A stretch of 32,000 nt of DNA. It comes from Microcystis aeruginosa NIES-2549. GTDB taxonomy: Bacteria > Cyanobacteriota > Cyanobacteriia > Cyanobacteriales > Microcystaceae. The stretch is from positions 3,690,001 to 3,722,000 of the forward strand of contig NZ_CP011304.1 of NCBI RefSeq assembly GCF_000981785.2, read 5' to 3'. Below, piece by piece: positions 3,835 to 29,977 of the stretch (position 1 is the first letter of the stretch; each line of letters starts with the position of its first letter). The notes below the pieces were generated by a model, which did no database searches, was not told where the DNA came from, and worked only from the letters and a program-made list of their open reading frames with translations. Both the position numbers and the translations under genes were made by a program.

Positions 3835-4197
3835 AAAAAGTTTCTAACCGTTCTTTTCTTTTTATTTATGTTAGCTTATTATGTGGAATGGCATTTAAAA
3901 CAGTCCTTAGCTGCTTTATTCTTTGAAGATGAAGAAATTGATAATAGTTCCCTGAATGTGATTAAAATCAGTCGCAGTCAATCGGTGCAATCTAAGGAGA
4001 GAAAAAAACGGAATCAAGACAACATACCTAGGCATAGTTTTCGGACTTTATTGGAGGACTTGGAGACGATTTGCTTGAATAAGGTAGAATGTATGATTAG
4101 AGAGGGAAGTTATCGTTTTTCTAAGATAAATCGACCGATTTCTCTGCCAAAAAAGGCGTTAGATTTATTAGGGGTTTCCTTAATTTGTAGCCAGTAG
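3835..4197 (+). pseudogene. C-terminal fragment of an IS1634/IS4-like transposase (IS remnant)
   Basis: The frame opens just after a stop at 3832-3834 and reads KKFLTVLFFLFMLAYYVEWHLKQ...HSFRTLLEDLETI...KKALDLLGV. This matches my recollection of IS1634-family transposase C-termini. The roughly 400 aa of N-terminal transposase sequence is missing. Confidence 0.55.
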
Positions 4198-4525: not shown

Positions 4526-6694
4526 ATGGCTAAAGCTTCTACCGTAACTTCTGAAATCGATCTTAAAGATTCGCAATATTACTTTAACCGAGAATTAAGC
4601 TGGTTAGAATTTAATCGTCGCGTGCTTTATGAGGCACTTGATCCTCGGACTCCCCTACTAGAAAGATTAAAATTTACTGCCATTTTTTGTGCCAATCTCG
4701 ACGAATTTTTTATGGTACGCGTGGCAGTTCTTAAACAACAGGTAGAGGCAAATGTAGCCGTTTTAAGTGCCGATGGCAGGACTGCCTCGGAACAGCTAAC
4801 CGAGATAAGTAACCGTCTGCGTCCCCTTGTGCAGCAGCAGGATCATCTTTTTGAACACACCCTGAAAAACCTCTTAGTAGAACAGGGAATTCATCTGATT
4901 AACTATGTAGATTTACATCAAGAACAGCGCAATTATCTCCACGATTACTTTGAACAAAATATTTTCCCCGTTTTAACTCCCCTGGCGGTGGATCCTAGTC
5001 ATCCTTTTCCCTATATTTCTAATCTTAGTCTCAATTTAGCCGTAGTCGTTCGCGATCCCGAGACCGATAAAGAACTATTTGCCCGGGTGAAAGTACCGCA
5101 GGTTTTCCCCCGTTTTCTGGCATTATCCAAAGAATTACGCCACCAAGACGGAAAGGCTTCGATTTGGACGGGAGTACCCCTTGAACAGGTGGTAATGCAC
5201 AATTTAGAGGCACTTTTCCCCGGCATGATCATCCAAGAATGTTATCCTTTTCGGGTGACACGCAACGCCGATATCTCCGTCGAAGAAGATGAGGCCGATG
5301 ATTTATTATTAGCGATCGAGGAAGAAGTACGCAAGCGCCGCATCGGTAAATCGGCAGTACGTCTGGAAATTCACAGTTCTACCCCTAGCAATATTAAAAA
5401 CCGGATCATGCGCGATCTCGGACTTGAGGAGATTGATGTTTACGATGTGGATGGACTGCTGGGACACAAAGATTTATTTTATTTTATGTCTTTACCCTGT
5501 CCCGAACTGAAAGATCCGCCTTGGAATCCTGTCACCCCAACGGTTTTACAGGGATTGCGAGAAATAGTTGACGGTAACGAAGACGGCATCCCAGAACAGG
5601 ATGGCGAAGATATTTTTACTTTAATTCGCAATAACGATATTCTCGTTCATCACCCTTACCATTCCTTTAGTGCCTCGGTACAACAGTTTATCGCTCAGGC
5701 TGCCCATGATGCCCATGTTTTAGCGATTAAAATGACCTTGTATCGTACTTCCGGAGATTCCCCGATTGTCAATTCCCTGATTGCGGCGGCGGAAAATGGT
5801 AAACAGGTAGCGGCGTTAGTAGAACTAAAAGCTCGCTTTGATGAGGAAAATAACATTAATTGGGCGAAAAAGCTCGAACAAGCCGGAGTTCACGTTGTTT
5901 ATGGCTTAGTTGGTCTAAAAACCCATACGAAAGTGGTTCTCGTGGTCAGAAAAGAAGGGGATAAAATCCGTCGTTATTTCCATATTGGCACGGGTAATTA
6001 TAACCCAAAAACAGCTAAATTATACACTGATTTGGGTTTACTTAGCTGTCGCGAGGATTTGGGGGCAGATATCACCGATTTATTTAACTTTCTGACCGGA
6101 TACTCCCGTCAGCAATCCTATCGCAAACTTTTAATTGCTCCCGTGAGTTTGCGAAAACGGATGTTAGCAATGATCGATCGCGAGGCCAAAAACTGTAAAA
6201 ATGGCGGTACGGGGCGCATTGTGGCAAAAATGAACTCTATTGTCGATAAACCGATTATAGAAGCTTTATACGCCGCTTCTCGTGCCGGTGTGCAGATTGA
6301 CTTAATTATTCGCGGCATCTGTTGTTTACGGCCCGGATTGCCGGAAGTGAGCGAAAATATCCGAGTAATTAGCATTATCGGCCGCTTTTTGGAACATTCC
6401 CGCATTTTTTACTTCTACAATGGTGGTCAGGAGGAGGTTTATATTGGTAGCGCCGATTGGATGACGCGGAACCTGACTCGTCGCGTGGAAGCAGTGACAC
6501 CCATCGATGAACCAGCGATCGCCAAGGAACTGGAAGAAATTCTCGGCATCATGTTGTCAGATAACCGGCAAGCATGGGAATTACAATCCGACGGCAGTTA
6601 TATTCAGCGTCGTGCTGCCAACCAGGGACAGGAAAGCAGTACCCATGTAATTTTAATGGAAAAAGCCCTTAAATCTGCGGGTATTACTCAATAG
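4526..6694 (+). CDS. ppk: polyphosphate kinase 1
   Basis: 722 aa. Typical PPK1 start (YFNRELSWLEFNRRVL), the phosphohistidine region (GLKTHTKVVLVVR) and tandem PLD-like C-terminal domains (FLEHSRIFYF). Confidence 0.97.
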   Translation: MAKASTVTSEIDLKDSQYYFNRELSWLEFNRRVLYEALDPRTPLLERLKFTAIFCANLDEFFMVRVAVLKQQVEANVAVLSADGRTASEQLTEISNRLRPLVQQQDHLFEHTLKNLLVEQGIHLINYVDLHQEQRNYLHDYFEQNIFPVLTPLAVDPSHPFPYISNLSLNLAVVVRDPETDKELFARVKVPQVFPRFLALSKELRHQDGKASIWTGVPLEQVVMHNLEALFPGMIIQECYPFRVTRNADISVEEDEADDLLLAIEEEVRKRRIGKSAVRLEIHSSTPSNIKNRIMRDLGLEEIDVYDVDGLLGHKDLFYFMSLPCPELKDPPWNPVTPTVLQGLREIVDGNEDGIPEQDGEDIFTLIRNNDILVHHPYHSFSASVQQFIAQAAHDAHVLAIKMTLYRTSGDSPIVNSLIAAAENGKQVAALVELKARFDEENNINWAKKLEQAGVHVVYGLVGLKTHTKVVLVVRKEGDKIRRYFHIGTGNYNPKTAKLYTDLGLLSCREDLGADITDLFNFLTGYSRQQSYRKLLIAPVSLRKRMLAMIDREAKNCKNGGTGRIVAKMNSIVDKPIIEALYAASRAGVQIDLIIRGICCLRPGLPEVSENIRVISIIGRFLEHSRIFYFYNGGQEEVYIGSADWMTRNLTRRVEAVTPIDEPAIAKELEEILGIMLSDNRQAWELQSDGSYIQRRAANQGQESSTHVILMEKALKSAGITQ

Positions 6695-6697
6695 GAA

Positions 6698-6739
6698 CAG
6701 TTACCAGTTACCAGTTACCAGTGATCGGTTATCAGTGTC
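6698..6739. repeat. heptamer tandem repeat (STRR-like)
   Basis: Six consecutive 7-nt units follow the ppk stop: CAGTTAC x3, then CAGTGAT, CGGTTAT, CAGTGTC. Confidence 0.85.
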
Positions 6740-6791
6740 TGTGAGTTTTATTGCTATTCACTGTTTACTGATCACTGGAAAAAGCTGACTA

Positions 6792-9694: not shown

Positions 9695-10019
9695 TCAAAA
9701 TTTTCACTAATGCTAAACTAATTATCGCCCCAACCGCCATAGCTGCAATTCCCCATTGACAAAAAGCCATAACCTCTAATGAAACCGAGCAAAAACAGTT
9801 TCTGGGACAATATGTGCATTCCCCCCGACGAGAATTGCCCTTGTCACCCATCGGCAGGGATGGATATTTCGCCATCAAAATTTCCCCACTCACCCTTGCT
9901 GAATTTGGGTATGTTAAAGAATAGGACAAAATTAACTTCTTGGTTAGAATAGGCAGTCATGCAAGAGACTTCGGCCGTGAGACGGCGGGCTATGGCTACA
10001 GAAGGGAGACGAATCAGCT

Positions 10020-13000
10020 ATGGTAAAACTAGAGGAACTTACTCGTGGCTCTATTGTTAACGGAATATTACCGAACCAAGCTGTCACCGTCATCGAGGCC
10101 AAGTGGCATGGCAGCGACACGGTAGAACTGACCTACAAAGATACCAACGGACAACCCTACACAGAACTGCTCTTTCGATACCGAGAGCCAACCCTAGAGA
10201 TTCTCACCGAAGGAAGACCGTGGGGTTTCGATGGCGATGGAGCTTTGCTGCGCCTAGTTTCCGAAGCCCACCGCATCCGGTTGGCCTACCTGTTTGACCC
10301 GCTTCTAGCCGTCCATACCTCTCTGGTGGAACCACTCCCTCATCAAATCACTGCTGTTTACGGTGAGATGCTCGATCGCCAACCTCTGCGCTTTTTGTTG
10401 GCCGATGACCCCGGGGCCGGGAAAACCATCATGGCGGGATTGTTAATTCGAGAACTCCTGATTCGAGGTGACTTAGCGCGCTGCCTGATCGTTTGTCCAG
10501 GCAGCCTCGCAGTGCAATGGCAAGACGAACTACATAACAAATTTCACCTTCCCTTCGATATCCTCACCAACGACCGCCTCGAAACGGCCCGCACCGGCAA
10601 CGCCTTCGCCGAAATGGGTCTGGTCATTGCTAGGCTTGATAAACTCAGCCGTAATCAAGACCTCCAGAAGAAACTCCAGCAGACTGATTGGGATCTGATT
10701 ATCTGCGACGAGGCCCACAAGATGTCCGCTTCGTTTTTCGGTGGGGATATTAAGGAAACAAAGCGTTACAAATTGGGCAAACTCCTCTCTAGCATTACCC
10801 GCCACTTCCTGCTGATGACGGCGACTCCCCACAACGGCAAAGAAGAAGACTTTCAGTTATTCTTAGCCCTACTTGATGGCGACCGCTTTGAGGGACGATT
10901 CCGCGACGGAGTTCCTGTTTCAGATACTTCCGACCTGATGCGCCGCATGGTCAAAGAAGAACTGCTCAAGTTTGACGGCAAGCCACTTTTCCCCGAAAGA
11001 ATCGCTCACACGGTCACTTACCCCCTCTCCGACCAAGAAGCGATCCTCTACAGTCGAGTCACCGAGTATGTGCGCGAAGAATTTAACCGAGCCGAAGCCC
11101 TGGCCAATAACGGGCGCAAGGGGACAGTCGGCTTTGCCCTCACCATTTTGCAACGCCGCCTCGCCTCCTCTCCGGAAGCCATCTATCAATCCTTGAAACG
11201 GCGACGAGAGCGGCTAGAAAAGCGACTCCGAGAAGAAGAATTGCTCAAGCGAGGCCAGTCGCTGGAGATGGAATTTGCCACCGTCCTTGACCAAGACGAC
11301 ATCGATGACGACTTTGAGGATACCGATAGCAGCGAGCGGGAGGCCACGGTCGAGGAGGTGGTCGATCAGGCTACAGCAGCCCGTACCATTGCCGAACTAC
11401 AGCTTGAAATCGCCCTGCTCAAAGAGCTTGAAGACTTAGCCAATACCGTCCGACGGAGCGGAAAAGACCGTAAGTGGGAAGAGTTTTCCCATCTTTTTCA
11501 GGATCAGGCGGAGATGTTCGATGCGGGAGGATACCGCCGCAAAATTGTCGTCTTCACCGAACATAGAGACACCCTCAACTACCTGAAAGAGCGGATCGGC
11601 ACACTCCTTGGCAACCCAGAAACTGTTGTCACCATTCACGGTGGCATGGGTCGGGAAGACCGCAAAAAAGCCGAAGAAGGCTTCAAGCAAGACGTAGGAG
11701 TACAGGTACTTCTGGCCACCGATGCCGCCGGAGAGGGGATCAACCTGCAACGAGCGCATCTCATGGTCAATTATGACCTACCCTGGAACCCAAACCGCCT
11801 AGAACAGCGATTCGGTCGCATTCACCGGATTGGACAGACCGAGGTTTGTCATCTCTGGAATTTGGTGGCCCACGAAACCCGCGAGGGAGATGTCTATCGG
11901 ACACTCCTCGAAAAACTCGAAGCCGAACAAAAAGCTTTAGGCGGACGGGTCTTTGATGTATTAGGTAAAGCCATTGCGGGAAAAGAATTGCGCGAACTTC
12001 TCATCAAAGCCATCCGCTACGGCGATCGCCCAGATATAAAAGCACGCTTAAACCAGGTCATCTCTGAAAAGCTCGATCAAGAGAGACTAAGGGAATTGCT
12101 GCAAGAACGCGCCCTAGCACGCGATTCGATGGATGCTTCCAAAGTTCAGAAAATTCGAGAAGATATGGAGCGAGCCGAAGCCAGAAGGTTACAGCCGCAC
12201 TTCATCGCCGCATTTTTCCTCGAAGCCTTCCAACGCTTAGGCGGCACCCTACGCCAGCGAGAGCCAAAGCGATACGAGATCACCAACGTCCCCGCCGTTA
12301 TCCGTAACAGAGACCGCTTTTTCGGGATAGGAGAGCCAATTCTCAAACGCTATGAGCGCATCTGTTTTGATAAAGAACTGATTAGTATTCCGGGGAAACC
12401 CGTTGCTACCTTTGTCTGTCCCGGCCATCCCCTGTTAGATGCCACTATCGATCTTGTCTTGGAACGGCATCGGGAATTACTCAGACGGGGAGCTATCCTA
12501 GTTGATGACAGTGATCCGAGCGAGGAAATTCGGGCGCTGGTGTACTTAGAACACGCCATTCAAGATGCTCGGCTAAATCCCGATGGTAGGAGGCGGGTGG
12601 TGTCGCGGCGGATGCAGTATGTGGAACTATTTGAACCACAGAGACACAGAGGACACGGAGAGAGGGATGCTGGGTATGCCCCTTATCTGGATTATCGTCC
12701 TTTGGCGGAGGAGGAGCGGGTGCTGGTGGAGCCTATCATTGATTCTCTGGATATTGGTAATGAGATTGAGAAGAAGGCTACCAGTTATGCGATCGCCAAC
12801 CTTGTCTCTTCCCATCTTCGGGAGGTACGGCAGCGCAAGGAAGAGCTAATTGAAAAGACCATTGCGGCAGTTAAAGACCGCCTGACCAAGGAGATCAACC
12901 ACTGGGACCATCGGGCGAACCAGTTGCGCCTACAGGAAGAAGCGGGAAAGACCAATGCCCGGATAAATTCCAACAAAGCCCGAGCCAGAGCCGATGAACT

Positions 13001-13544
13001 ACAAACGCGGTTGCAAAAGCGCTTGTCTGAATTGGAGCAGGAGCGCCAGCTTTCCCCTTTGCCGCCGGTGGTGGTGGGGGCAGCCCTCGTCGTACCGGGC
13101 GGACTGTTAGGAAGACTTTTAGGCAAGCCAATGTTTGCCAGAGACACTAAGCGCATCGAGCAGCTGGCGATGGCGGCAGTCATGGCGACCGAAAAAGCAT
13201 TAGGCTACGAGCCGCGGGATGTGAGCGCCGAGAAGTGCGGCTATGACATCGAATCGCGCAGGACCGGAACAGGCCGCTTACGGTTTATCGAAGTCAAGGG
13301 TAGAGTAGAAGGAGCCGATACGGTGACGGTGACTAAAAACGAGATTTGCCTAGCGTTGAACAAGTCCGAGAGTTTCTTACTTGCTTTAGTTTCCGTTTCT
13401 CCGTCAGAGGAAGTGCGGGTGAGATATGTGCGCCAGCCATTCCAGAGGGAACCGGATTTTGGGGTGTGTAGTGTTAATTATAATTGGAGAGAGTTATGGG
13501 ACAGGGGGGATATGATTGAACCACAAAGGCACAAAGGACACTAA
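10020..13544 (+). CDS. SNF2/DEAH-family helicase with C-terminal PD-(D/E)XK-like (DUF3883-type) domain; helicase component of an Hma-type defence locus
   Basis: 1174 aa. Helicase motifs: motif I GAGKT (10413-10427), motif II DEAH (10707-10718), motif III LMTATPHNG, motif VI QRFGRIHRIGQ. A coiled-coil region follows. The C-terminal module carries GYDIES...RFIEVKG (D at 13245-13247, EVK at 13290-13298). The last 8 codons and the stop (EPQRHKGH*) come from the first unit of the downstream repeat array. Confidence 0.93.
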   Translation: MVKLEELTRGSIVNGILPNQAVTVIEAKWHGSDTVELTYKDTNGQPYTELLFRYREPTLEILTEGRPWGFDGDGALLRLVSEAHRIRLAYLFDPLLAVHTSLVEPLPHQITAVYGEMLDRQPLRFLLADDPGAGKTIMAGLLIRELLIRGDLARCLIVCPGSLAVQWQDELHNKFHLPFDILTNDRLETARTGNAFAEMGLVIARLDKLSRNQDLQKKLQQTDWDLIICDEAHKMSASFFGGDIKETKRYKLGKLLSSITRHFLLMTATPHNGKEEDFQLFLALLDGDRFEGRFRDGVPVSDTSDLMRRMVKEELLKFDGKPLFPERIAHTVTYPLSDQEAILYSRVTEYVREEFNRAEALANNGRKGTVGFALTILQRRLASSPEAIYQSLKRRRERLEKRLREEELLKRGQSLEMEFATVLDQDDIDDDFEDTDSSEREATVEEVVDQATAARTIAELQLEIALLKELEDLANTVRRSGKDRKWEEFSHLFQDQAEMFDAGGYRRKIVVFTEHRDTLNYLKERIGTLLGNPETVVTIHGGMGREDRKKAEEGFKQDVGVQVLLATDAAGEGINLQRAHLMVNYDLPWNPNRLEQRFGRIHRIGQTEVCHLWNLVAHETREGDVYRTLLEKLEAEQKALGGRVFDVLGKAIAGKELRELLIKAIRYGDRPDIKARLNQVISEKLDQERLRELLQERALARDSMDASKVQKIREDMERAEARRLQPHFIAAFFLEAFQRLGGTLRQREPKRYEITNVPAVIRNRDRFFGIGEPILKRYERICFDKELISIPGKPVATFVCPGHPLLDATIDLVLERHRELLRRGAILVDDSDPSEEIRALVYLEHAIQDARLNPDGRRRVVSRRMQYVELFEPQRHRGHGERDAGYAPYLDYRPLAEEERVLVEPIIDSLDIGNEIEKKATSYAIANLVSSHLREVRQRKEELIEKTIAAVKDRLTKEINHWDHRANQLRLQEEAGKTNARINSNKARARADELQTRLQKRLSELEQERQLSPLPPVVVGAALVVPGGLLGRLLGKPMFARDTKRIEQLAMAAVMATEKALGYEPRDVSAEKCGYDIESRRTGTGRLRFIEVKGRVEGADTVTVTKNEICLALNKSESFLLALVSVSPSEEVRVRYVRQPFQREPDFGVCSVNYNWRELWDRGDMIEPQRHKGH
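12633..12656 (+). repeat. degenerate copy of the AACCACAAAGGCACAAAGGACAC repeat inside the helicase CDS, in frame
   Basis: GAACCACAGAGACACAGAGGACAC compared with the array unit GAACCACAAAGGCACAAAGGACAC (13518-13541). It is translated EPQRHRGH, close to the EPQRHKGH that ends the same protein. Confidence 0.7.
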
Positions 13545-13749
13545 GGGGATTAACCACAAAGGCACGAAGGACACTAAGGGGATTAACCACAAAGGCACAA
13601 AGGACACTAAGGGGATTAACCACAAAGGCACGAAGGACACGAAGATAGAAGAACCACAAAGGCACAAAGGACACGAAGATAGAAGAACCACAAAGGCACG
13701 AAGGACACGAAGATAGAAGAACCACAAAGGCACGAAGGACACTAAGGTT
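13518..13749 (+). repeat. tandem array, 7 units of 30-34 bp, forward orientation (core AACCACAAAGGCAC(A/G)AAGGACAC)
   Basis: Units start at 13518, 13552, 13585, 13618, 13652, 13686 and 13720. There are two linker types: TAAGGGGATT in units 1-3 and GAAGATAGAAG in units 4-6. The array begins inside the helicase 3' end and stops exactly at the ATG of the GxxExxY gene (13750). Confidence 0.95.
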
Positions 13750-14130
13750 ATGGATGAGAGGGCTAATGATTTATCTAAGGAGATTATTGGGGCGGCGATC
13801 GCTGTTCATCGGGAGTTGGGGCCAGGACTATTGGAGTCGGCCTATGAGGCCTGTTTAGAGTACGAGTTATTGGATAGGGGGATAGCGGTGGAGCGTCAAG
13901 TTCCTCAATCAGTGATTTATCGCGGTGTTAAACTTGATTGTGGTTATCGTCTCGATCTATTGGTGGAAAATCTGGTTATTGTCGAACTGAAAACTGTTGA
14001 ACAACTTACCCCCATTCACGAGGCCCAGTTGTTAACCTATCTCAAATTACGCCGGCTTTGGCTAGGATTACTGATTAATTTTAACGTTCCCGTTCTCAAA
14101 CAAGGCATCAAACGCCTTGTCAACAATTAA
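13750..14130 (+). CDS. GxxExxY-family protein (PD-(D/E)XK nuclease-fold, PDDEXK_3-like)
   Basis: 126 aa. It has the eponymous motif GPGLLESAY (G-x-x-E-x-x-Y) and a D...ExK-like core ([16 protein letters not shown]). The C-terminus (LLINFN) is typical of this family as I recall it. Confidence 0.85.
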
Positions 14131-14135
14131 TCTTT

Positions 14136-14192
14136 GTGTCCTTTGTGCCTTTGTGGTTCCTCAATCTTCGTGTCCTTTGTGCCTTTGTGGTT
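14136..14192 (-). repeat. two units of the same repeat in reverse orientation
   Basis: GTGTCCTTTGTGCCTTTGTGGTT occurs at 14136-14158 and 14170-14192. It is the reverse complement of the core in the 13518-13749 array. The repeat starts 5 nt after the GxxExxY stop and ends 12 nt before the methylase ATG. Confidence 0.95.
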
Positions 14193-14204
14193 CTTTTATC
14201 TCCC

Positions 14205-17198
14205 ATGACCTACCGTAAAAAACTCATTGAAGTGGCCCTACCCCTAGAAGCCATTAACGTCGAATCGGCATACGAAAAGAAACCAGGTATTGGTTCCCAT
14301 CCTAGAGGAGTTCATCTCTGGTGGGCGCGGCGACCTTTAGCAACTTGTCGCGCCGTTCTGTGGGCTTCATTAGTGGATGACCCGTCGAGTTGGCCAGATA
14401 AATTTCCCACCGAGGAGGAGCAGAATCGGGAACGACAGAGATTGTTCGATATATTAGGAAGAATTCATATTGAAACAGATAAGAAGGGAAACACGAAGCA
14501 GGTCGTAAAGGGACTGGTATCGTGGAAGGAAATCAATAAACCCACTTCCAACGTATTAGACGCGGCACAGCGAGAAATTGCGCGCTGTTTAGCTTGGGAA
14601 CGTGGGGAAGAACCCCCCACTAAACCGGATGCTATACGCGACTATATCGCTAAATATGCCCCCTCCGCCTATGACCCGTTTTGTGGTGGTGGTTCCATTC
14701 CTTTGGAGGCCCAGCGCTTGGGTTTGCAGGCCCACGGTAGTGACCTCAATCCGGTGGCGGTGTTGATTACTAAGGCTTTGATCGAGATTCCGCCCAAGTT
14801 TAAGGATAAACCGCCGGTTAATCCCGATTCTCGCCAAAAACAAAAGATTTCTTCCTGGGAAGGGGCCCAGGGATTGGCCGCAGATGTGCGCTATTACGGT
14901 CAGTGGATGCGGGATGAGGCTTTTAAAAGGATTGGCTATCTTTATCCGATGGTGGAAACCAACCACAAAGGCACAAAGGACACTAAGGTGATTGCTTGGC
15001 TTTGGGCCAGGACGGTGAAGTGTCCTAATCCGGCCTGTGGCTGTCAGATGCCTCTGGTCCGCAGTTTTCAGCTTTCGACGAAGAAGGGTAAGGAGGCTTG
15101 GGTTGAGCCTTTTGTGGGAGATGTTAACACTGAGGGGGATTTTAACCACAAAGGCACTGAGGACACAAAGGGGGATGATTTTGGTGTCTCTGGGGTGCCA
15201 CCCAAAATCCGCTTTGAGGTGAAGACGGGTAAGGGTACGGCCCCGGAATCTCCCAAGACTGGTCGAGGAGCTACGTTTCGGTGTTTAGCCTGTGGTCAGC
15301 CAGTTAACGATAAGCATATTAAGGCAGAAGGAATGGCGGGACGGATGGATGCTCAACTCATGGCAATTGTTGCTGAGGGGAAAGGTGGACGGATTTATCT
15401 TTCTCCTAACTCTGAACATGAAGCAATCGCTAAGAGTGCAAAACCAACATGGTATCCAGATGCTCAAATAAGCGATGATAGGCGGTCAATGTTCACACCG
15501 CTTTATGGACTGACGCATTTTCATCATCTTTTTACTCCCCGTCAACTCGTCGCCCTCACTACTTTTAGCGATTTAGTAAGTGAAGCCAGAGAAAAAATTA
15601 AAGCTGATGCAGTAGCCGCAGGAATCCCTGATGATGATTTACCTCTTAATGATGGGGGAATAGGCGCGACGGCTTATGCGGATGCAGTGGCGACTTATTT
15701 GGCATTTGTGATTGATCGATGCGCTGACTTTAACTGTTCTGTAACGAGGTGGGCATCTAGTAATGAAAAAATAATGAATTTATTTGCCCGCCAAGCAATC
15801 CCTATGGTTTGGGATTATTCAGAAGCTAATATTCTAGAGAAGGTGGTTGGAGGATTTGAGACGTGCAATGAATATGTTAGTGACTGTATCGCAATATTGC
15901 CGACAACAATCACATCTAAGGGAGAAGTGAATCAAAAAGATGCTTCCCAAAACAACTGTGATTTGTCGCTATGTCCCGTAATATCAACCGATCCACCATA
16001 TTATGACAATATAAGCTATGCAGATCTTTCAGACTTTTTTTACGTCTGGTTGCGCCGTTCTTTAAATTCAATCTATCCCAATCTTTTCAGCACTTTACTC
16101 GTTCCCAAAGCACCCGAATTAGTCGCTACTCCCTATCGTTTTGGGGGTGATAAGAAAAAAGCTCAATCCTTTTTTGAGGAGGGCTTAGGCAAAGCATTCG
16201 GACGAATGAATGCGATGGCTCACTCAGATTACCCTCTGACGGTTTACTACGCTTTCAAGCAGTCAGAAACCAAAGACAGCGATGATGACGCAGGAAATAC
16301 TTTTGTATCATCCACCGGGTGGGAAACAATGCTCGAAGGTTTGATTAAATCCGATTTTTCGATTGGCGGCACATGGCCAATGAGAAGTGAACAAAATGAA
16401 AGGATGGTAGCAACTGGCACAAATGCCCTCGCCTCATCTATAGTCCTCGTGTGTCGTCCCCGTCCCGCCGACGCGCCCAAAGCCAGCCGCCGGCAATTCC
16501 TCAACGAACTGAAGCGAGACCTTCCCCAAGCCCTAAAACTGCTGCAACAGGGCAATATTGCCCCCGTTGACCTCGCCCAAGCCAGTATTGGGCCCGGGAT
16601 GGCAATCTACTCCAAATACGCCGCTATCCTCGAATCTAACGGCTCCTCCATGGGTGTTCGCACGGCCCTGCAACTGATTAACCAGATTCTCGACGAATTT
16701 CTCACCGAACAAGAAGGAGAATTTGATAGTGATACCCGTTGGGCGCTGACTTGGTTCGAGCAGTACCAATTCAACGAAGGACTATATGGCAATGCAGAAA
16801 CCCTCTCCAAAGCCAAAAACACCAGTATTCAGGGCATGGTTGAAGCTGGCATACTAGAAGCAAAAGCCGGTAAAGTGCGACTACTCAAGCGCGAAGATCT
16901 TAAAACCGATTGGAAGCCAGAAAAAGATGAGCGGACACCCATCTGGGAAATCACCCAACACCTCATCCATACCCTCGATAAAAACGGCGAAACCGGAGCC
17001 GCAGAACTCTTGGCCAAACTAGGAAACAGAGCCGATTTAGCCAAAGAACTCGCCTATAGACTTTATAGCCTCTGTGACAGAAAAGGTTGGACCCAAGAAG
17101 CCATAGCCTACAATAGCCTCGTCACCTCTTGGCCAGAAATCACCCGCCTAGCCAACGAATATAAACCCTCCCCCGAACAACTATCCTTTTCTTTGTGA
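14205..17198 (+). CDS. DUF1156-type DNA methyltransferase (DPPY, N6-adenine/N4-cytosine class) with split Zn ribbon; methylase component of the Hma-type locus
   Basis: The start is moved to ATG 14205 (MTYRKKLIEVALPLEAINVESAYEK is the characteristic DUF1156 N-terminus). The 23 codons upstream in the ORF track are repeat sequence. Motif I DPFCGGGS at 14673-14696. Cys pairs CPNPAC and CLAC form the Zn ribbon. Motif IV DPPY at 15990-16001. The stop TGA (17196-17198) lies in the first unit of the downstream array. Confidence 0.9.
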   Translation: MTYRKKLIEVALPLEAINVESAYEKKPGIGSHPRGVHLWWARRPLATCRAVLWASLVDDPSSWPDKFPTEEEQNRERQRLFDILGRIHIETDKKGNTKQVVKGLVSWKEINKPTSNVLDAAQREIARCLAWERGEEPPTKPDAIRDYIAKYAPSAYDPFCGGGSIPLEAQRLGLQAHGSDLNPVAVLITKALIEIPPKFKDKPPVNPDSRQKQKISSWEGAQGLAADVRYYGQWMRDEAFKRIGYLYPMVETNHKGTKDTKVIAWLWARTVKCPNPACGCQMPLVRSFQLSTKKGKEAWVEPFVGDVNTEGDFNHKGTEDTKGDDFGVSGVPPKIRFEVKTGKGTAPESPKTGRGATFRCLACGQPVNDKHIKAEGMAGRMDAQLMAIVAEGKGGRIYLSPNSEHEAIAKSAKPTWYPDAQISDDRRSMFTPLYGLTHFHHLFTPRQLVALTTFSDLVSEAREKIKADAVAAGIPDDDLPLNDGGIGATAYADAVATYLAFVIDRCADFNCSVTRWASSNEKIMNLFARQAIPMVWDYSEANILEKVVGGFETCNEYVSDCIAILPTTITSKGEVNQKDASQNNCDLSLCPVISTDPPYYDNISYADLSDFFYVWLRRSLNSIYPNLFSTLLVPKAPELVATPYRFGGDKKKAQSFFEEGLGKAFGRMNAMAHSDYPLTVYYAFKQSETKDSDDDAGNTFVSSTGWETMLEGLIKSDFSIGGTWPMRSEQNERMVATGTNALASSIVLVCRPRPADAPKASRRQFLNELKRDLPQALKLLQQGNIAPVDLAQASIGPGMAIYSKYAAILESNGSSMGVRTALQLINQILDEFLTEQEGEFDSDTRWALTWFEQYQFNEGLYGNAETLSKAKNTSIQGMVEAGILEAKAGKVRLLKREDLKTDWKPEKDERTPIWEITQHLIHTLDKNGETGAAELLAKLGNRADLAKELAYRLYSLCDRKGWTQEAIAYNSLVTSWPEITRLANEYKPSPEQLSFSL
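14961..14988 (+). repeat. perfect repeat unit inside the methylase CDS, in frame
   Basis: AACCACAAAGGCACAAAGGACACTAAGG is 28/28 identical to array unit 13585-13612. It is read as NHKGTKDTK within ...[25 protein letters not shown]..., a different frame from that used at the helicase C-terminus. Confidence 0.9.
15131..15177 (+). repeat. second repeat-derived segment (linker plus unit) inside the methylase CDS, in frame
   Basis: TGAGGGGGATTTTAACCACAAAGGCACTGAGGACACAAAGGGGGAT resembles linker TAAGGGGATT plus the core. It is read as EGDFNHKGTEDTKGD and lies between the two Cys pairs of the Zn ribbon. Confidence 0.8.
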
Positions 17199-17700
17199 CC
17201 TTTGTGCCTTTGTGGTTAATCCCCCTTCGTGTTCTTTGTGCCTTTGTGGTAAATCCCCCTTCGTGACCTTCGTGCCTTTGTGGTAAATCCCCCTTCGTGA
17301 CCTTTGTGCCTTTGTGGTAAATCCCCCTTCGTGTTCTTTGTGCCTTTGTGGTTCCCCAAACTTTGTGACCTTTGTGCCTTTGTGGTTCAAAATCCCCCTT
17401 CGTGTTCTTTGTGGTTCAAAATCCCCCTTTGTGCCTTTGTGGTTCAAAATCCCCCTTCGTGACCTTTGTGCCTTTGTGGTTCAAAATCCCCCTTCGTGAC
17501 CTTTGTGCCTTTGTGGTAAATCCCCCTTCGTGACCTTTGTGCCTTTGTGGTAAATCCCCCTTCGTGTTCTTTGTGCCTTTGTGGTTCCCCAAACTTTGTG
17601 ACCTTTGTGCCTTTGTGGTTCAAAATCCCCCTTCGTGTTCTTTGTGGTTCAAAATCCCCCTTCGTGTTCTTTGTGGTTCAAAATCCCCCTTCGTGTGGTT
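17191..17700 (-). repeat. tandem array of about 15-16 units (28-37 bp), reverse orientation, with a 233-bp higher-order duplication
   Basis: Units have the form TTCGTG(AC/TT)CTTTGTGCCTTTGTGGT plus linker AAATCCCCC, TCAAAATCCCCC or TCCCCAAAC. Some units are shortened (TTCGTGTTCTTTGTGGTTCAAAATCCCCC). Segment 17260-17427 recurs at 17493-17660 with a single mismatch. Confidence 0.95.
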
Positions 17701-17748
17701 ATCTCTCCCAAATTGAGGCATTATAAAAATAACTCCTCATCAAATCCC

Positions 17749-20700
17749 ATGGCAATCAGCAATCGTGAACGAGTCGGACGCGCCCTAGATTTCCTCAGAG
17801 AGGGACTATACCCCTTCATTGAACGAGAAATGAAAGCAAGCTACGGCCAGAAGTGGCTCGCCGTGGCCTTAAGTTGCCTCCCTGAGAGCTATACGATCCG
17901 CAGGACAGGTGATGCCGTCCTCAAGGAAGACGTTTCGGCCCTGCTAATTGTCCTCTGGGAGCAGTGGAATGAAGTTTTTAAGAAAACCCTAGGCAGAAGC
18001 GATCGCTCTCTGGCCAGTGAACTAAGAGATGTCCGCAACGCCTGGGCCCATAACGATGCTTTCAGCCTCGACGATGCTTACCGGGCTTTTGATAGCATCT
18101 CTCGCCTACTGAGTTCGGTTTCCGCCGACACCCAAGAGGTGGAGAAGCAGAAGCAAGAAATCCTCAGACTTCGCTTTGAAGAACAGGCCCGGCGAGAGAC
18201 AAGGCGCCAAGCGATCGCACCGACGGAGGGACAACCGATGTCGGGATTGAAACCCTGGCGGGAAATCGCCACCCCCCACCCCGATGTGGCTTCCGGACGC
18301 TTCCAACAGGCCGAATTTGCCGCCGACCTCTGGCAAGTCTATCTCGATGAAGGCTCTGACGAATACCGCGACCCGACGGAATTTTTCCGCCGCACCTACC
18401 TCACCGAAGGACTCAAGCAACTTCTGACCAATGCCCTGCTGCGTCTGAGTGGTAATGGCGGAGAGCCGGTGATTGAACTGCAAACTAACTTCGGTGGCGG
18501 AAAAACCCACGCCATGCTGGCCCTCTACCATCTGTGCAATGCTTTGGCGATCGAAGATCTTCCCGGTATGGAGTCGATATTCCAAGCTCTGAACATTAAA
18601 AAACCCCCCGAAAATGTCAACATTGCTGTTCTGGTCGGCACTAAAGTCCAGCCTAGTGGCATCCCCCCCTACAAACCGGAACACAACAAGCAAAATCGCC
18701 CAGAAATCAAGACCCTGTGGGGAGAAATAGCTTGGCAACTCGGCGGCGCTGAGGGCTACGCTCTGGTTCGCAACGCCGATGAAACTTCCACTAATCCGGG
18801 AGACGCACTCAAAATATTGTTTAATCGTTTTTCACCCTGTTTGATCTTGATCGACGAATGGGTTGCCTATGCCAGGCAATTGCACGACAAGAACGATATT
18901 GCCGGCGGTAGTTTTGACACCCAGTTTACTTTTGCCCAAACCCTGAGCGAGTCGGCGAAAAATGCCCAGCAGACGCTTTTGGCTGTGAGTATCCCCGCTT
19001 CGGAAACCGTTGACGAAAAAACCGGAGAAGTACGGACTACAGATGTTGAAACCGGAGGAGAACGGGGTACAGAGGCCCTAGACCGCCTTAAAAATGCGAT
19101 CGGGCGCATCCAATCCCCTTGGCGACCCGCTAGTGCCGAGGAGAGTTTCGAGATCGTCCGCCGCCGTCTCTTTCAAACCACTACTGACCCGCAACTATTT
19201 GTCGCACGGGATGCGGTTATTAAAGCCTTCTCCGAGATGTATCGCACCCAGGCCCAGGAATTTCCTAGCGAATGCCTGGAGGCTGACTACAGACGCCGCC
19301 TGCGGGAAGCCTATCCCATTCACCCAGAATTTTTCGATCGCCTCTACTCCGACTGGTCAACCCTCGATAAATTCCAGCGCACCAGGGGTGTTTTGCGACT
19401 CATGGCCAAGGTCATCCATTCCCTTTGGGAGCGAGAGGACAAGAGCTTGTTGATCATGCCGTCCCACGTCCCGATGGATGATGCTCAGGTTCAGTCGGAG
19501 TTAACCCGCTACTTAGATGATAATTGGGTTCCGATCATCGAAAAGGATGTGGATGGCCCCAATTCTCTGCCCCTCGACATCGATCGCCAAAATTCCAACC
19601 TGGGACGCTATTCTGCTTGCCGTCGGGTTACGCGCACTATTTACCTTGGCTCGGCCCCCACGATTCGGGCTGCTAACCGAGGACTAGAAGATAAGAGGAT
19701 AAAACTCGGTTGCGTGCAGCCGGGGGAGACTGTAGCCACTTTTGGTGATGCCCTACGGCGGCTAACAGATCGGGCCACCTACCTCTACATCGATGGCAAC
19801 CGCTACTGGATTTCCAATCAGCCGAACGTCACCCGCACAGCCCAAGATCGGGCAAACCTGCTCTTTGAGGAGCGGTATAAAGTGACAGAAGAAATCGTCC
19901 GGCGCTTGAAGTCCGACCAGCAGCGGGGCGAGTTTGGAGGGATTCATATTGCCCCAGAATCTACTGCCGATATTCCTGATGATCCTAATCTCGGCGTGCG
20001 GCTCGTCGTTCTCGGTCCTGGGCAACCCCACAGCAAATCCGCCGAAGATAGCCCCGCTCGGCGTTTAGTGGCGGAAATTCTCAATCAGAGAGGGGGTAGC
20101 CCCCGCTATTACAAGAATACGCTTGTATTTGTTGCCGCTGACAAATCGAACTTGGAAAACTTAGAGAAGAACGTCGCCGGATATCTTGCCTGGAATTCAA
20201 TTGTGGCGGATCAGGAAACCCTCAATCTCGATGTTTCTCAGAATAAACAGGCGATCACTAAGCGCGATCAAGCCGACAAGGACGTAAGCCTGATCCTCAA
20301 CCAAACCTATAAGTGGCTGCTGGTTCCGGAGCAACCCGACCCCCAGAAAGGCATCCACTGGACTGATACCAACGCTCAGGGGGACGATTCGCCTATCGAT
20401 CGAGCCAGCCGCAAACTGGTTCATGAGGGGCAACTGATTACCCATTACTCTGGTGACAACCTGCGGATGGAGGCCCTCGACAAATACCTGTGGCGTTCAA
20501 CTAACCACATCGATCTGAAACGTCTGTGGGAGTACCTAGCGCAGTATCTTTACTTGCCCCGTCTCAAGAACCCGGATGTTCTGCTTCAGGCTGTGCGGGA
20601 GGGATTGGTCTCAATGCTTGTGCAGGAAAATTTTGCTTATGCAGAGGGCTGGGACGAGGCAAGGCAAAGATATACTGGTCTTGTCATCCTTCGGGATATC

Positions 20701-21141
20701 AACCCGAGTATCAGCAGTCACAGCCTTCTGGTTAAGCCTGATGTAGCTATGGGGCAGCTAGAGGCCGAGAAACCAGCTAACCCCCCGACCACTGCCGAGA
20801 CTGATTCGGTTATCTCCAGTGACCGTGATCGGCCGCCATCTTTACCCTCTGGTGTTGGATTAACTGTGACAGAGACTCCCGGTGATCTGGTTGAGAAAAA
20901 GCTGGTTCTGCGGAGGTTTTACGGCAGTGTTGAGATCGATCCCCTGCGAATTAATCGAGACGCTTCCGCGATCGCTGACGAGGTAATCCAGCATCTCACC
21001 CGACTCAATGGGGCCAGCGTTAAGGTAACACTGGAGATCGAGGCTGATATTCCTGATGGAACACCCGATGATGTGGTGCGGACGGTGACGGAGAATTGTC
21101 GGACACTAAAATTTAATAATCAGTCGTTTGAGCAGGAGTGA
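17749..21141 (+). CDS. DUF499-type P-loop ATPase with N-terminal Swt1-like HEPN domain; ATPase component of the Hma-type locus
   Basis: The start is moved to ATG 17749 (MAISNRERVGRALDFLREGLYPFIEREMK). The 48 codons upstream in the ORF track are repeat-array translation. HEPN Rx4H motif RNAWAH at 18034-18051. Walker A NFGGGKTH (GGGKT at 18493-18507). Walker B CLILIDEW. About 1130 aa, as expected for DUF499 proteins. Confidence 0.88.
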   Translation: MAISNRERVGRALDFLREGLYPFIEREMKASYGQKWLAVALSCLPESYTIRRTGDAVLKEDVSALLIVLWEQWNEVFKKTLGRSDRSLASELRDVRNAWAHNDAFSLDDAYRAFDSISRLLSSVSADTQEVEKQKQEILRLRFEEQARRETRRQAIAPTEGQPMSGLKPWREIATPHPDVASGRFQQAEFAADLWQVYLDEGSDEYRDPTEFFRRTYLTEGLKQLLTNALLRLSGNGGEPVIELQTNFGGGKTHAMLALYHLCNALAIEDLPGMESIFQALNIKKPPENVNIAVLVGTKVQPSGIPPYKPEHNKQNRPEIKTLWGEIAWQLGGAEGYALVRNADETSTNPGDALKILFNRFSPCLILIDEWVAYARQLHDKNDIAGGSFDTQFTFAQTLSESAKNAQQTLLAVSIPASETVDEKTGEVRTTDVETGGERGTEALDRLKNAIGRIQSPWRPASAEESFEIVRRRLFQTTTDPQLFVARDAVIKAFSEMYRTQAQEFPSECLEADYRRRLREAYPIHPEFFDRLYSDWSTLDKFQRTRGVLRLMAKVIHSLWEREDKSLLIMPSHVPMDDAQVQSELTRYLDDNWVPIIEKDVDGPNSLPLDIDRQNSNLGRYSACRRVTRTIYLGSAPTIRAANRGLEDKRIKLGCVQPGETVATFGDALRRLTDRATYLYIDGNRYWISNQPNVTRTAQDRANLLFEERYKVTEEIVRRLKSDQQRGEFGGIHIAPESTADIPDDPNLGVRLVVLGPGQPHSKSAEDSPARRLVAEILNQRGGSPRYYKNTLVFVAADKSNLENLEKNVAGYLAWNSIVADQETLNLDVSQNKQAITKRDQADKDVSLILNQTYKWLLVPEQPDPQKGIHWTDTNAQGDDSPIDRASRKLVHEGQLITHYSGDNLRMEALDKYLWRSTNHIDLKRLWEYLAQYLYLPRLKNPDVLLQAVREGLVSMLVQENFAYAEGWDEARQRYTGLVILRDINPSISSHSLLVKPDVAMGQLEAEKPANPPTTAETDSVISSDRDRPPSLPSGVGLTVTETPGDLVEKKLVLRRFYGSVEIDPLRINRDASAIADEVIQHLTRLNGASVKVTLEIEADIPDGTPDDVVRTVTENCRTLKFNNQSFEQE

Positions 21142-21237
21142 ACGAACCCCTTGCTTTTTGCCTCATCTCCACAAGCAATTTAAATCGCGAGCAGAGCTTA
21201 TCCAACAAGGTTTTGAGATTTATTCAGCCAGCCCTAT

Positions 21238-21525
21238 TTAACGATCGCTGCCGTTTTCCTGTACCGATCCTAACTGTTGACGCACATCATCGATCGCTAG
21301 ATTTAACTGGGCAATTTTATCTTCTAAACTGCGGCGGGCCATTTCCATGCCTTCCTCGGGAGTCAAGCGCCCATGGCGGATATCTTCCAAAAAGGACTGA
21401 TTATCACCAGCTGCTAAACTGCGACGGCTGCGATTAGCCAACACTGTCCCCAAAACACCGCCCACTAAACCACCGACAATCGCACCAGCCAAAAAACCGC
21501 CCGCAAACCCATCTCGCTGACTCAT
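21238..21525 (-). CDS. YtxH-domain-like small membrane-associated protein
   Basis: 95 aa. It has a glycine-rich hydrophobic N-terminus (GFAGGFLAGAIVGGLVGGVLGTVLA) followed by a charged helical region, the typical YtxH layout. Confidence 0.6.
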   Translation of the reverse strand: MSQRDGFAGGFLAGAIVGGLVGGVLGTVLANRSRRSLAAGDNQSFLEDIRHGRLTPEEGMEMARRSLEDKIAQLNLAIDDVRQQLGSVQENGSDR

Positions 21526-23728: not shown

Positions 23729-23762
23729 TCAGGGTTTGCTGAAAAAGTTTGTTGGTGGGGTT

Positions 23763-23806
23763 AGGAGTCAGGAGTCTCCGAGTCAGGAGTCAGGAGGGGA
23801 AGTCAG
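23763..23806. repeat. heptamer tandem repeat (AGGAGTC type)
   Basis: AGGAGTC at 23763-23769, 23770-23776 and 23785-23791, then AGGAGGG and GAAGTCA, interrupted by TCCGAGTC. Confidence 0.8.
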
Positions 23807-23882: not shown

Positions 23883-23910
23883 CTTTGTGTCCTTTGTGTC
23901 TTTGTGGTTC
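23883..23910 (-). repeat. solo copy of the island repeat, outside the island
   Basis: CTTTGTGTCCTTTGTGTCTTTGTGGTTC has the same core as 14136-14158 with one substitution. It lies in the mdh / methyltransferase intergenic region. Confidence 0.85.
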
Positions 23911-25143: not shown

Positions 25144-25178
25144 CAGTTATCAGTTTTCAGGTTTCAGTTATCAGTGAC
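25144..25178. repeat. heptamer tandem repeat (CAGTTAT type)
   Basis: Five units immediately upstream of the methyltransferase ATG: CAGTTAT, CAGTTTT, CAGGTTT, CAGTTAT, CAGTGAC. Confidence 0.85.
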
Positions 25179-25558
25179 TAGCACCGGTCGTTGGTAGCTT
25201 GAAATCAGAAAGATTTTAATTTTTGTCCCCTTGTAAATTCCCTTTCTGATTTGCTCAAGTCAGTTAAAATCGTCTAATACTAAATCCGTTGAGTATAGGC
25301 TACATATCAGGATAGGCAATCATGCAAGAGGCAAAAGGGAGAATAAATAATCAGTTTTTAATAACCGGATTTAGTCTAATGCCACAGGATTTAGTCGATG
25401 GGAAAATTTTGCCCAATCACGATCATAACAATCCTCTTTTGTCAAGGCAGAAATGTTTAAGAATTGTGTCCCTGTGGTCATTAGTTTTATCCCGACTCTA
25501 TGGCTCTCTCCTCTCCCCTGAAGTCTTAACAAGTAATTGAGATGCACGAGCAGCTAAT

Positions 25559-27073: not shown

Positions 27074-27143
27074 ATCAGGAGTCAGTCATCAGTGATCGGA
27101 TTTGAGTTTTCAGTTCACTGATTACTGTTTACTGTTCACTGTC
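27074..27143. repeat. heptamer-periodic repeat tract (CAGT/CTGTTTA types)
   Basis: ...CAGGAGTCAGTCATCAGTGATCGG...CAGTTCA CTGATTA CTGTTTA CTGTTCA CTGTCGG. The 7-nt periodicity is clearest over 27111-27145. Confidence 0.7.
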
Positions 27144-28701: not shown

Positions 28702-28956
28702 TAAGTGGCTGAGTGGAATTAAATATAAGATGAACGTAGGTTGGGTTGAAGCATGAAACCCAACGCCAGATTATGTTACGCTACCGCTAACCCATCCTAC
28801 AAATAATTGTGTCTCCCTACTTAGAACCAAAGAGTAAGTGGGTGGGTGGAATTAAATATAAGATGAACGTAAGTTGGGTTGAAGCATGAAACCCAACGGC
28901 CGATTATGTTACGCTACCGCTAACCCATCCTACAAATAATTGTGCCTCCCTACTTA
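28702..28956. repeat. two direct copies of a ~122-bp element (period 133 bp), each with an internal hairpin
   Basis: 28713-28823 and 28846-28956 are 111-bp stretches differing at only a few positions (e.g. GTAGG/GTAAG, GCCAG/GGCCG, GTGTC/GTGCC). The similarity extends about 11 bp further left. Each copy contains GTTGGGTT-N9-AACCCAAC (copy 1: 28740-28764). Confidence 0.9.
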
Positions 28957-29007: not shown

Positions 29008-29403
29008 ATGCTTCTGGTGGAAAAATTATTAAGTAAGCCCAAAAGCCGTAAATTAGCGATTTTTTTGGCTTTTATCGGCAGCATTCTCGCTTTACCCTTT
29101 CCTATCGCCGGTATTCATAAATTCTATCTCGGTCAACCTCTCTGGGGAATTATCTATCTTCTCCTCTGGCAAACTCCGATTCCCCGGGTGGCTTGCGCGA
29201 TCGATGCAGTGTGGTATTTAATCCAAGATAACCAATTTTTGGCTAACTATTTTCCCACTGCCACCGCTGCTGCCACTGTACCCAGTTTAGAGCCTAAACA
29301 AGTAGAGGCGATCGGGGCAGCTTTAAGGGAATTAGAGAGCCTCCGGCAAGAAGGATTAATTTCTGAGTACGAATTTGAAGAAAAACGGCGACAACTACTA
29401 TAA
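29008..29403 (+). CDS. TM2-domain membrane protein with C-terminal SHOCT-like domain
   Basis: 131 aa. It has the TM2 signature AGIHKFYLGQPLWGIIYLLL and a SHOCT-like C-terminus LRELESLRQEGLISEYEFEEKRRQLL. Confidence 0.7.
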   Translation: MLLVEKLLSKPKSRKLAIFLAFIGSILALPFPIAGIHKFYLGQPLWGIIYLLLWQTPIPRVACAIDAVWYLIQDNQFLANYFPTATAAATVPSLEPKQVEAIGAALRELESLRQEGLISEYEFEEKRRQLL

Positions 29404-29949: not shown

Positions 29950-29977
29950 CAGGAGTCAGGAGACAGGAGATAGGAGA
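29950..29977. repeat. heptamer tandem repeat (CAGGAGA type)
   Basis: CAGGAGT, CAGGAGA, CAGGAGA, TAGGAGA, followed by a CCCCACA/CTTCCCA-type run up to the gyrA stop. Confidence 0.8.

Follow-up and report, generated by a model that had tools for sequence, protein, structure and literature searches.

An Hma (Type-1 BR) defence locus with an embedded GxxExxY nuclease gene on a strain-variable island of Microcystis aeruginosa

Introduction

Which kind of defence system is encoded by three large neighbouring genes of Microcystis aeruginosa NIES-2549, and can this system be expected to work? The genes, hmaA, hmaB and hmaC, lie in a stretch of 32,000 nucleotides (contig NZ_CP011304.1, positions 3,690,001 to 3,722,000 of the forward strand), which we analysed as a whole and refer to as the window; all coordinates are positions in this window. 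They code for a helicase-nuclease, a DNA methyltransferase and a HEPN-ATPase fusion protein, respectively. Based on the evidence presented below the locus is very probably a complete and apparently functional Hma system, also classified as a Type-1 BREX-related (BR) system, and belongs to the common variant in which HEPN is fused, and it is located on an 11.5-kb island which Microcystis acquired horizontally. It is an ordinary member of an already described and partly characterised family. Our analysis contributes one more example, from Microcystis, to a family with over 2400 catalogued taxa, and it corrects the belief that this family is uncharacterised. The remaining interest of the locus lies in the fact that Type-1 systems have yet to be reconstituted in complete form, in an apparent natural allele swap in HmaB and in a small GxxExxY nuclease gene that forms a cassette together with a family of short repeats.

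Core genes of the locus

The core proteins of the locus are full-length members of HmaA, HmaB and HmaC with intact motifs, the order of the triad is conserved, and the island that carries it is present in some strains and absent from others. A preliminary description of this DNA, made from the sequence alone, had reported three large co-directional genes, quoted a number of motifs and labelled the locus Hma. We found open reading frames (ORFs) at exactly these coordinates (Table 1) and the label agrees with the PADLOC models, which match end to end: HmaA scored 1707 bits (E=0, model positions 1-1170 of 1176), while HmaB and HmaC matched over their full length with 1211 and 1082 bits (E=0 in both cases). 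The families proposed in that description for profile hidden Markov model (HMM) searches (DUF1156, DUF499, DUF3883, SNF2, Helicase_C and HEPN) were all matched in Pfam. HmaA contains SNF2-rel_dom, Helicase_C and NOV_C (formerly DUF3883; 3.7e-22), HmaB contains DUF1156 (4.7e-28) and HmaC contains HEPN_Swt1 (1.4e-39) and DUF499 (4.3e-33).

All quoted motifs can be read directly in the translations. For HmaA these are GAGKT, DEAH, TATP, QRFGRIHRIGQ and the C-terminal GYDIES...FIEVKG, in which D...E-V-K is intact. HmaB shows MTYRKKLIEVALPLEAIN, FCGGGS (motif I, residue 159), CPNPACGC...CLACGQ and DPPY (motif IV, residue 596), and HmaC shows RNAWAH (the Rx4H motif of HEPN), GGGKT and LILIDE. The "Cys4 ribbon" proposed for HmaB holds in part: the cysteines are present in the window, but only two of them are invariant in seven homologues and the others are missing from one Bacillota homologue. 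The triad had been recognised correctly; the fourth gene (GxxExxY) and the repeat arrays in both gaps had been overlooked.

Table 1. Coordinates of the features of the Hma locus in the window
Feature	Positions	Strand	Description	Basis
Strain-variable island carrying the whole system	9762-21219	.	11,458 bp	Comparison with empty-site contig, G+C content
hmaA	10020-13544	+	SNF2 helicase with C-terminal NOV_C/DUF3883 PD-(D/E)XK nuclease, 1174 aa	PADLOC, Pfam
Tandem array	13516-13750	+	33-34-nt unit (AACCACAAAGGCACRAAGGACACKAAG plus linker) present 7 times; its final copies make up the 5' arm around the GxxExxY gene	
GxxExxY / PDDEXK_3 small nuclease gene	13750-14130	+	126 aa, between hmaA and hmaB	Pfam, TIGR04256
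Inverted unit copies, 3' arm	14129-14201	-	Two copies, ending 3 nt before the hmaB start	
hmaB	14205-17198	+	DUF1156 N6-adenine-type DNA methyltransferase, 997 aa	PADLOC, Pfam
Allelic mosaic segment of hmaB	15240-15980	+	HmaB aa 346-592	Comparison with strain L001
Array in the hmaB-hmaC gap	17190-17700	-	About 13-15 inverted unit copies filling the gap, with a 183-nt internal duplication	
hmaC	17749-21141	+	Swt1-type HEPN (about aa 11-125) fused to DUF499 AAA+ ATPase, 1130 aa	Pfam, PADLOC

The longest ORF of hmaB starts with GTG at 14136 and that of hmaC with TTG at 17605. We preferred the ATG starts given in Table 1 because the additional N-terminal residues are translated intergenic repeat and both the homologue and the HMM alignments begin at the ATGs; the gene calls on identical contigs agree. 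Scans for promoters and terminators gave signals no higher than the shuffled expectation. A plus-strand ORF at 21138-21437 (99 aa) overlaps the stop of hmaC, has no family match and is spurious; the real gene at that site lies on the minus strand (21238-21525) and encodes a 95-aa Y2009_N/Ssl2009_C protein.

To describe the conservation of the triad we used a profile search with HmaC homologues across one-genome-per-species contigs, which resulted in 80 loci. All of them encode full-length HEPN-DUF499 proteins with 52-94% identity, and they come from Cyanobacteriota, Planctomycetota, Verrucomicrobiota, Acidobacteriota, Chloroflexota, Pseudomonadota, Bacillota, Bacteroidota, Nitrospirota, Spirochaetota and one archaeon. 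Informative for synteny were the 44 loci in which 8 kb or more upstream of hmaC are available. The gene-neighbourhood check suggested in the preliminary description turned out in favour of the triad, as hmaA and hmaB are both present in 41 of these 44 loci from many phyla, with the order A-B-C on one strand in 39 cases and B-C-A in two. The catalytic motifs are conserved as well. Among the HmaA homologues GAGKT is kept in 35/38, DEAH in 39/40, motif VI in 41/42 and the nuclease EVK in 43/44; DPPY is kept in all 55 HmaB homologues; and for HmaC we detected HEPN RN.WAH in 77/78 homologues and both GGGKT and the Walker B DE in 80/80. Across phyla the A-B and B-C gaps contain Schlafen-AlbA2/HATPase, YhcG/DUF1016, AAA_21 and PIN genes, a habit of gap genes that has already been published.

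The G+C content is 0.50-0.55 from 10 to 21 kb compared to 0.40-0.44 in the flanks. In a Microcystis contig with an empty site (L221) the homology to the window ends at 9761 and restarts at 21220, with 539 unrelated bp in between. The gene order on this contig is upp, a 95-aa Ssl2009-like gene, a 235-aa gene and a flavodiiron gene, and the 539 bp lie between the 95-aa and the 235-aa genes. Because the homology breaks at these two positions we place the system on a strain-variable island. Neither an integrase nor a tRNA nor a target duplication was seen at the island. A 45-nt inverted repeat (1142-1186 / 21197-21241, 89% complementary) has one arm that spans the right island junction at 21219/21220.

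Relation to known defence systems

An operon of HEPN-DUF499 (with a Swt1-type HEPN), restriction-modification (R-M; DUF1156) and SNF2-DUF3883 genes was described in 2013 by Anantharaman et al. with Ava_2192 of Anabaena as the prototype, and the DUF3883 domain joined to the SNF2 helicase was termed 'a novel REase domain' (PMC3710099). The name Hma was given by Payne et al. in 2021, who counted 1,638 instances in 26 phyla (PMC8565338). Liu et al. (2024) found that Halomonas HmaA alone cuts T4 propagation about 100-fold in E. coli, that the exchange R610A (motif VI) abolishes the protection against T4 and that E1104A (nuclease) weakens it; they also observed inserted genes between the core genes in about two thirds of hma loci (PMC11232893). 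In the same paper the nuclease domain of HmaA is reported to have nickase activity (PMC11232893). Rakesh and Krishnan (2026) reclassified the Hma family as Type-1 DUF499-centred BR systems, with 2446 taxa, of which 1370 have the HEPN fusion and 79% the fusion of helicase and nuclease (PMC12839542). The statement of the preliminary description that there is no known mechanism and no characterisation was outdated in view of the test of HmaA in 2024, the reclassification in 2026 and the reconstitution of the sister system MANTIS. With the published Hma systems our locus shares the three core genes, the gene order and the domain architecture, as well as the carrying of extra nuclease genes inside the operon. 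There is no essential difference; what is peculiar to this locus is its GxxExxY cassette, the filling of both gaps by repeat arrays and the strain-specific variable segment of HmaB.

MANTIS (Gao_RL, a Type-2 BR system of P. aeruginosa) is the reconstituted relative and the only one for which a mechanism is based on experiments. The DUF499 ATPase MtsA and MtsB load MtsC, a methylase acting on asymmetric 6-bp sites, which become hemimethylated, while the same complex at unmodified sites triggers the helicase-nuclease with a preference for inverted sites; methylase and AAA+ protein are both required for modification and for restriction (bioRxiv 10.64898/2026.09.23.753747). Both systems share three homologous components, namely the DUF499 AAA+ protein, the DUF1156-type methylase and the SF2 helicase effector. 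However, MANTIS possesses MtsB (DUF3780) as a fourth protein, its helicase carries a PLD nuclease at the N-terminus and HEPN is missing, whereas our locus has no DUF3780, carries its nuclease as a C-terminal PD-(D/E)XK domain and contains HEPN. An ATPase is likewise found together with an N6-adenine methylase and an SNF2 helicase in BREX type 3 (BrxC, PglXI, BrxHII) and in DISARM class 1 (DrmD, DrmMI). In contrast to these, our locus is without PglZ, BrxA/B/F and DrmA/B/C, and its helicase carries its own nuclease.

Given these similarities, one of the three systems (DISARM, BREX type 3 or MANTIS) could have been mislabelled as Hma. HmaA indeed gave helicase-core matches to DrmD (435 bits), BrxHI (342), BrxHII (295) and DrmA and also matched DpdE, HmaB matches PglXI weakly, and homology to the Gao_RL/MANTIS equivalogs is clear for all three proteins (DUF499_antiphage 3e-52, DUF1156_antiphage 6e-37 and the helicase part of phospholipD_antiphage 4e-51). 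Those matches are partial, though, and far below both the Hma scores and the NCBIfam equivalog cutoffs: we observed 178 bits against a cutoff of 1200 for NF042962, 127 against 1000 for NF042963 and 174 against 1100 for NF042964, and the DISARM helicase core reached 368 on HmaA where 610 are needed. Furthermore, PglZ, BrxA, BrxB, DrmB and DrmC had no match in the 18 window ORFs scanned, and neither DUF3780 nor a PLD domain was found in the island, where the sole small gene is the PDDEXK_3/GxxExxY gene; the same set of missing partners, DrmA included, holds for the island and the other window ORFs scanned. The locus is therefore not a BREX or DISARM system, as PglZ, BrxA/B and DrmA/B/C are missing, nor a Type-2 BR member, as DUF3780 and the PLD domain are missing, and we regard a mislabelling as practically negligible. 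For the structural relatives, searches of the PDB sequences with HmaB, HmaC and their profiles gave no detectable relative; the nearest solved relative of HmaA is RapA.

Variable segment of HmaB and proposed mode of action

We compared the three proteins with those of strain L001. HmaA is 100% and HmaC 99% identical between the strains, while HmaB is only 49.5% identical across residues 346-440 and 33% across residues 506-592, with 92-96% identity in the remainder. Both divergent blocks fall between motif I (159) and motif IV (596), which supports the role of HmaB as the specificity subunit. Rakesh and Krishnan place the target-recognition insert of the methylase between the same two motifs (PMC12839542), and residues 346-592 are probably this insert. 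The mosaic pattern suggests that the target-recognition segment was swapped, and its confinement to the insert is as expected of a specificity determinant under diversifying selection. One of the divergent blocks resembles a Nostoc allele.

From the homology to MANTIS and BREX a mode of action can be proposed. HmaC, an ORC/Cdc6-type AAA+ protein like BrxC and MtsA, would use ATP to load HmaB onto DNA. HmaB would methylate adenine at a short and probably asymmetric site and thereby mark self DNA, with its specificity presumably residing in the variable insert. At unmodified sites the HmaBC complex would recruit or license HmaA, an SNF2 translocase expected to nick or cut the foreign DNA, and the HEPN RNase of HmaC may be a second, probably abortive, effector that is released when restriction fails. 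The preliminary description had arrived at an R-M-like model with a HEPN back-up arm, which is the model put forward in the literature (PMC3710099, PMC12839542); its suggestion of two different nuclease chemistries is not a new idea and matches the published hypothesis.

Weighing of the evidence

There are several points which weigh against a complete and functional system working in this way, and two further alternatives draw on them. The published activity data for Type-1 systems were obtained with Halomonas HmaA alone and with no complete system; this HmaA did not need HmaB or HmaC for its effect, and passage through a host expressing HmaB gave T4 no protection (PMC11232893). HmaA could accordingly be a stand-alone helicase-nickase with HmaB and HmaC as separate or regulatory modules, in which case the locus would not be modification-dependent. 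The frequencies in the surveyed hmaA loci, of which only 85% have hmaB and only 81% have hmaC (PMC11232893), point in the same direction. The test of T4 protection by HmaB was conducted without HmaC, however. T4 DNA is moreover hypermodified. Both facts weaken the case for HmaA acting alone, and so do the conservation of the triad (41/44 loci, 39 of them in the order A-B-C) and that of the catalytic motifs, including a DPPY present in 55/55 homologues. All three proteins are also homologous to parts of MANTIS, in which the methylase and the AAA+ protein are needed for modification and restriction, and the variable insert of HmaB behaves like a specificity domain. Overall we consider a stand-alone HmaA unlikely and prefer the complete Hma system.

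Two more points of this kind concern HmaC and the loading step. MtsB (DUF3780) is needed for methylation in MANTIS and Type-1 systems are without it, thus the loading step may differ. The AlphaFold2 model of HmaC (19 sequences) was poor, with a predicted local distance difference test score (pLDDT) of 59.9. This model weakly matches the ATPase module of human ORC (5uj7_C, probability 0.96, E 0.024), and BrxC was not recovered; the match lends weak support to the published ORC/Cdc6-type AAA+ assignment.

The remaining points concern the state of the window copy. In the most conserved DUF1156 motif a 36-nt patch within 14271-14313 encodes YEKKPGIGSHPRGV, compared to REKSIRHG-HPSTL in six other homologues, with the frame kept. 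In addition there are in-frame copies of the repeat motif at 12634-12656 in hmaA and at 14961-14983 and 15144-15166 in hmaB (EPQRHRGHG; NHKGTKDTK; NHKGTEDTK). With this patch and these copies the activity of the allele is not guaranteed. One could go further and see in the window copy a decaying, inactive relic under invasion by short repeats, especially as hmaA takes its final 8 codons and its stop codon from the first repeat copy (13519-13544) and the gaps are filled by repeat arrays. Yet the ORFs of HmaA, HmaB and HmaC are unbroken over 1000-1170 codons with every catalytic motif intact, HmaA and HmaC are 100% and 99% identical in other Microcystis strains, and the in-frame copies stand at positions where other cyanobacterial homologues, hmaB genes among them, have similar sequence. 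An identical HmaA is also encoded on the chromosome CP012375.1 and on other contigs. A relic is thus very unlikely, and an apparently functional Hma system remains our preferred reading.

The GxxExxY gene and its inverted arms

The protein encoded between hmaA and hmaB matches Pfam PF13366 (PDDEXK_3) with 7.5e-44 and TIGR04256 with 155.8 bits (cutoff 35). None of its residues G26, E29, Y32, D69, E79 and K81 varies among 22 homologues, and the AlphaFold2 model, which is confident (pLDDT 88), gave weak Foldseek matches to nucleases of the lambda-exonuclease/Cas4 type. The gene is enclosed by an unusual inverted repeat (13643-13714 / 14130-14201), which is 72 nt long and 93% complementary. For the region 13500-14215 an RNA fold predicts a stem of about 70 bp that encloses the ORF (z = -12.9) and ends 3 nt before the start of hmaB.

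We then compared 17 GxxExxY genes: the window gene, three obtained via HmaC, seven found by tblastn in plasmid and chromid records, four retrieved by looking up exact proteins and two via the repeat motif. An inverted repeat was counted if the score between the 5' and 3' flanks was at least 14. By this measure 14 of the 17 genes are flanked by an inverted repeat compared to only 0.17% of 1197 control ORFs. Arm-bracketed genes were encountered in at least six phyla (window, L011, L016, L046, L204-L207, L211, L214, L216, L217). The architecture of the arms is constant: (W)AAC comes first, and then there are three CRCRRAG sub-repeats with a spacing of 8-9 nt; the arms are 25-35 nt long and those of a pair lie 377-510 nt apart. 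Their sequence varies by lineage and both arms change together: the sub-repeat is CACAAAG in Cyanobacteria and Kallotenue, CACAGAG in Bacteroides and Bernardetia, CGCAGAG in Gemmatirosa and Gemmataceae, CGCGAAG in Sphingomonas, CGCAAAG in Caldilineaceae and CACGGAG in Thermoleptolyngbya.

In all annotated contexts the gene is co-directional with its neighbours and located between two operon genes. We observed the orders fabD-[GxxExxY]-fabG-acpP-fabF in Sphingomonas, radA-[GxxExxY]-FAD protein in Bacteroides, ade-[GxxExxY]-mannose-1-phosphate guanylyltransferase in Bernardetia, hmaA-Uma2-[GxxExxY]-77aa-PIN-hmaB in Thermoleptolyngbya and SNF2 helicase-[GxxExxY]-MmeI/Eco57I-type methylase in Kallotenue and Gemmataceae. 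Homologues at 72-79% identity cover three phyla. Those of Kallotenue (Chloroflexota) and Gemmataceae (Planctomycetota; L211, L214) are 75-79% identical to the window protein; the SNF2 helicase next to them is without NOV_C. Their site thus corresponds to the helicase-methylase junction of our locus, although the defence system is a different one.

Small genes between inverted short repeats are also known from REP/REPIN-RAYT and from the ORF-bearing intervening sequences of 23S rRNA. There, too, gene-less hairpins occur elsewhere, the genes are co-directional in operons and a long stem can arise from the arms once they are transcribed. The GxxExxY cassette differs in that it encodes a PD-(D/E)XK nuclease of ~125 aa rather than an HUH transposase or a four-helix-bundle protein and in that its arms consist of three CRCRRAG sub-repeats. 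We also compared the arms with the layout of integron attC sites and rejected this candidate: the ORF lies inside the hairpin and not between sites, and AAC/GTT is found at the outer, not the inner, ends.

Repeat arrays and cassette turnover

The units of the arrays are 33-34 nt long and contain a 27-nt core, AACCACAAAGGCACRAAGGACACRAAG, that is AAC-CACAAAG-G-CACRAAG-GA-CACRAAG. The window holds 24 motif matches where 0 are expected; 23 of them lie within the operon and one at 23887-23909. In other cyanobacteria the motif was found inside the Hma operons (L006, L011, L016) and not in their flanks. The exact 23-mer occurs in at least 120 metagenome contigs (L084-L203) with a G+C content of 0.36-0.71 and unrelated flanks. 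Among the matches listed, an inverted partner lies 12-150 nt downstream of roughly every second copy (58 partners downstream compared to 7 upstream), so that hairpin pairs are frequent.

We rejected the idea that the motif is specific to Hma, as there are three Hma loci among the at least 120 contigs listed, and also the idea that it always accompanies a GxxExxY gene, as 4 of the 120 motif-selected loci listed hold one. The relation does hold in the other direction, GxxExxY genes being flanked by members of the motif family. No gene family was found that is common to the neighbours of the motif copies among the matches listed. Viral contigs contained no exact match to the motif, and a scan of the window at the Rfam gathering thresholds returned no RNA family for the repeats.

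The junctions of accessory genes in the cyanobacterial operons are associated with the repeats, in that the cassettes found there are bounded by motif copies. Within the hmaB-hmaC array three strains (L002, 14037-16290; L222; L223) carry a two-gene cassette coding for an AAA_21/AAA_15/DUF3696 protein of 446 aa and a protein of 172 aa, with motif copies of the same orientation on both sides, whereas the window has the array alone. On a Microcystis metagenome contig (L118, 8350-10142) a PIN protein and an antitoxin-like ORF lie beside the GxxExxY gene with one motif copy between each. A further locus (L155, 473-2494) has an HNH gene and a duplicated 3' fragment of hmaB bounded by inverted motif copies, and Uma2 and VapBC were detected at the same junctions in L217 (1396-3598).

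The embedded nuclease is either an auxiliary nuclease, which is how Rakesh and Krishnan would read such a gene (PMC12839542), or a selfish cassette riding in the operon. Our literature searches with the motif sequence and with GxxExxY/PDDEXK_3 returned nothing relevant, and no description of arm-bracketed genes was found; the cassette with its repeat family is the sole observation of this study for which that is the case. We tentatively suggest, as a possibility that is itself somewhat doubtful, that the GxxExxY gene is the autonomous form of an undescribed class of operon-invading cassettes that occurs across phyla. The gene-less hairpins might be its non-autonomous copies, comparable to REPIN/RAYT, and in the Hma operons of Microcystis the arms might have been amplified into arrays which mark the junctions where accessory cassettes (AAA_21/DUF3696, VapBC-like, HNH) are gained and lost. 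If the cassette is mobile, it would explain the small nuclease genes inside defence and housekeeping operons (e.g. fabD-fabG) of many phyla, and it would offer a mechanism for the turnover of cassettes inside defence islands.

Flanks of the island and other features of the window

The flanks of the island contain the housekeeping genes psbA, ppk, flavodiiron, upp, ndhO, mdh, an rRNA methylase, terC, a class II aminoacyl-tRNA synthetase and gyrA. The PADLOC models had no match among the other window ORFs scanned outside the island. An ORF of 109 aa at 3868-4197 gave a sub-threshold match to "Histidine kinase domain observed in conflict contexts" (E 7e-4, 19.8 bits, cutoff 27). Two other strains carry an IS605 OrfB/TnpB-like gene of 418 aa between upp and ndhO (L220 and L221, 3801-5057), which is absent from the window. 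We also observed a direct repeat of 122 nt (28702-28823 / 28835-28956, 95% identical) upstream of the gene at 29008. Finally, intergenic runs of heptamer repeats of the CAGTTAC/CAGTGAT and GGAGTCA types are located at 6691-6740, 23758-23796, 25144-25179, 27076-27111 and 29953-29969; they resemble the short tandemly repeated (STRR) sequences of cyanobacteria.

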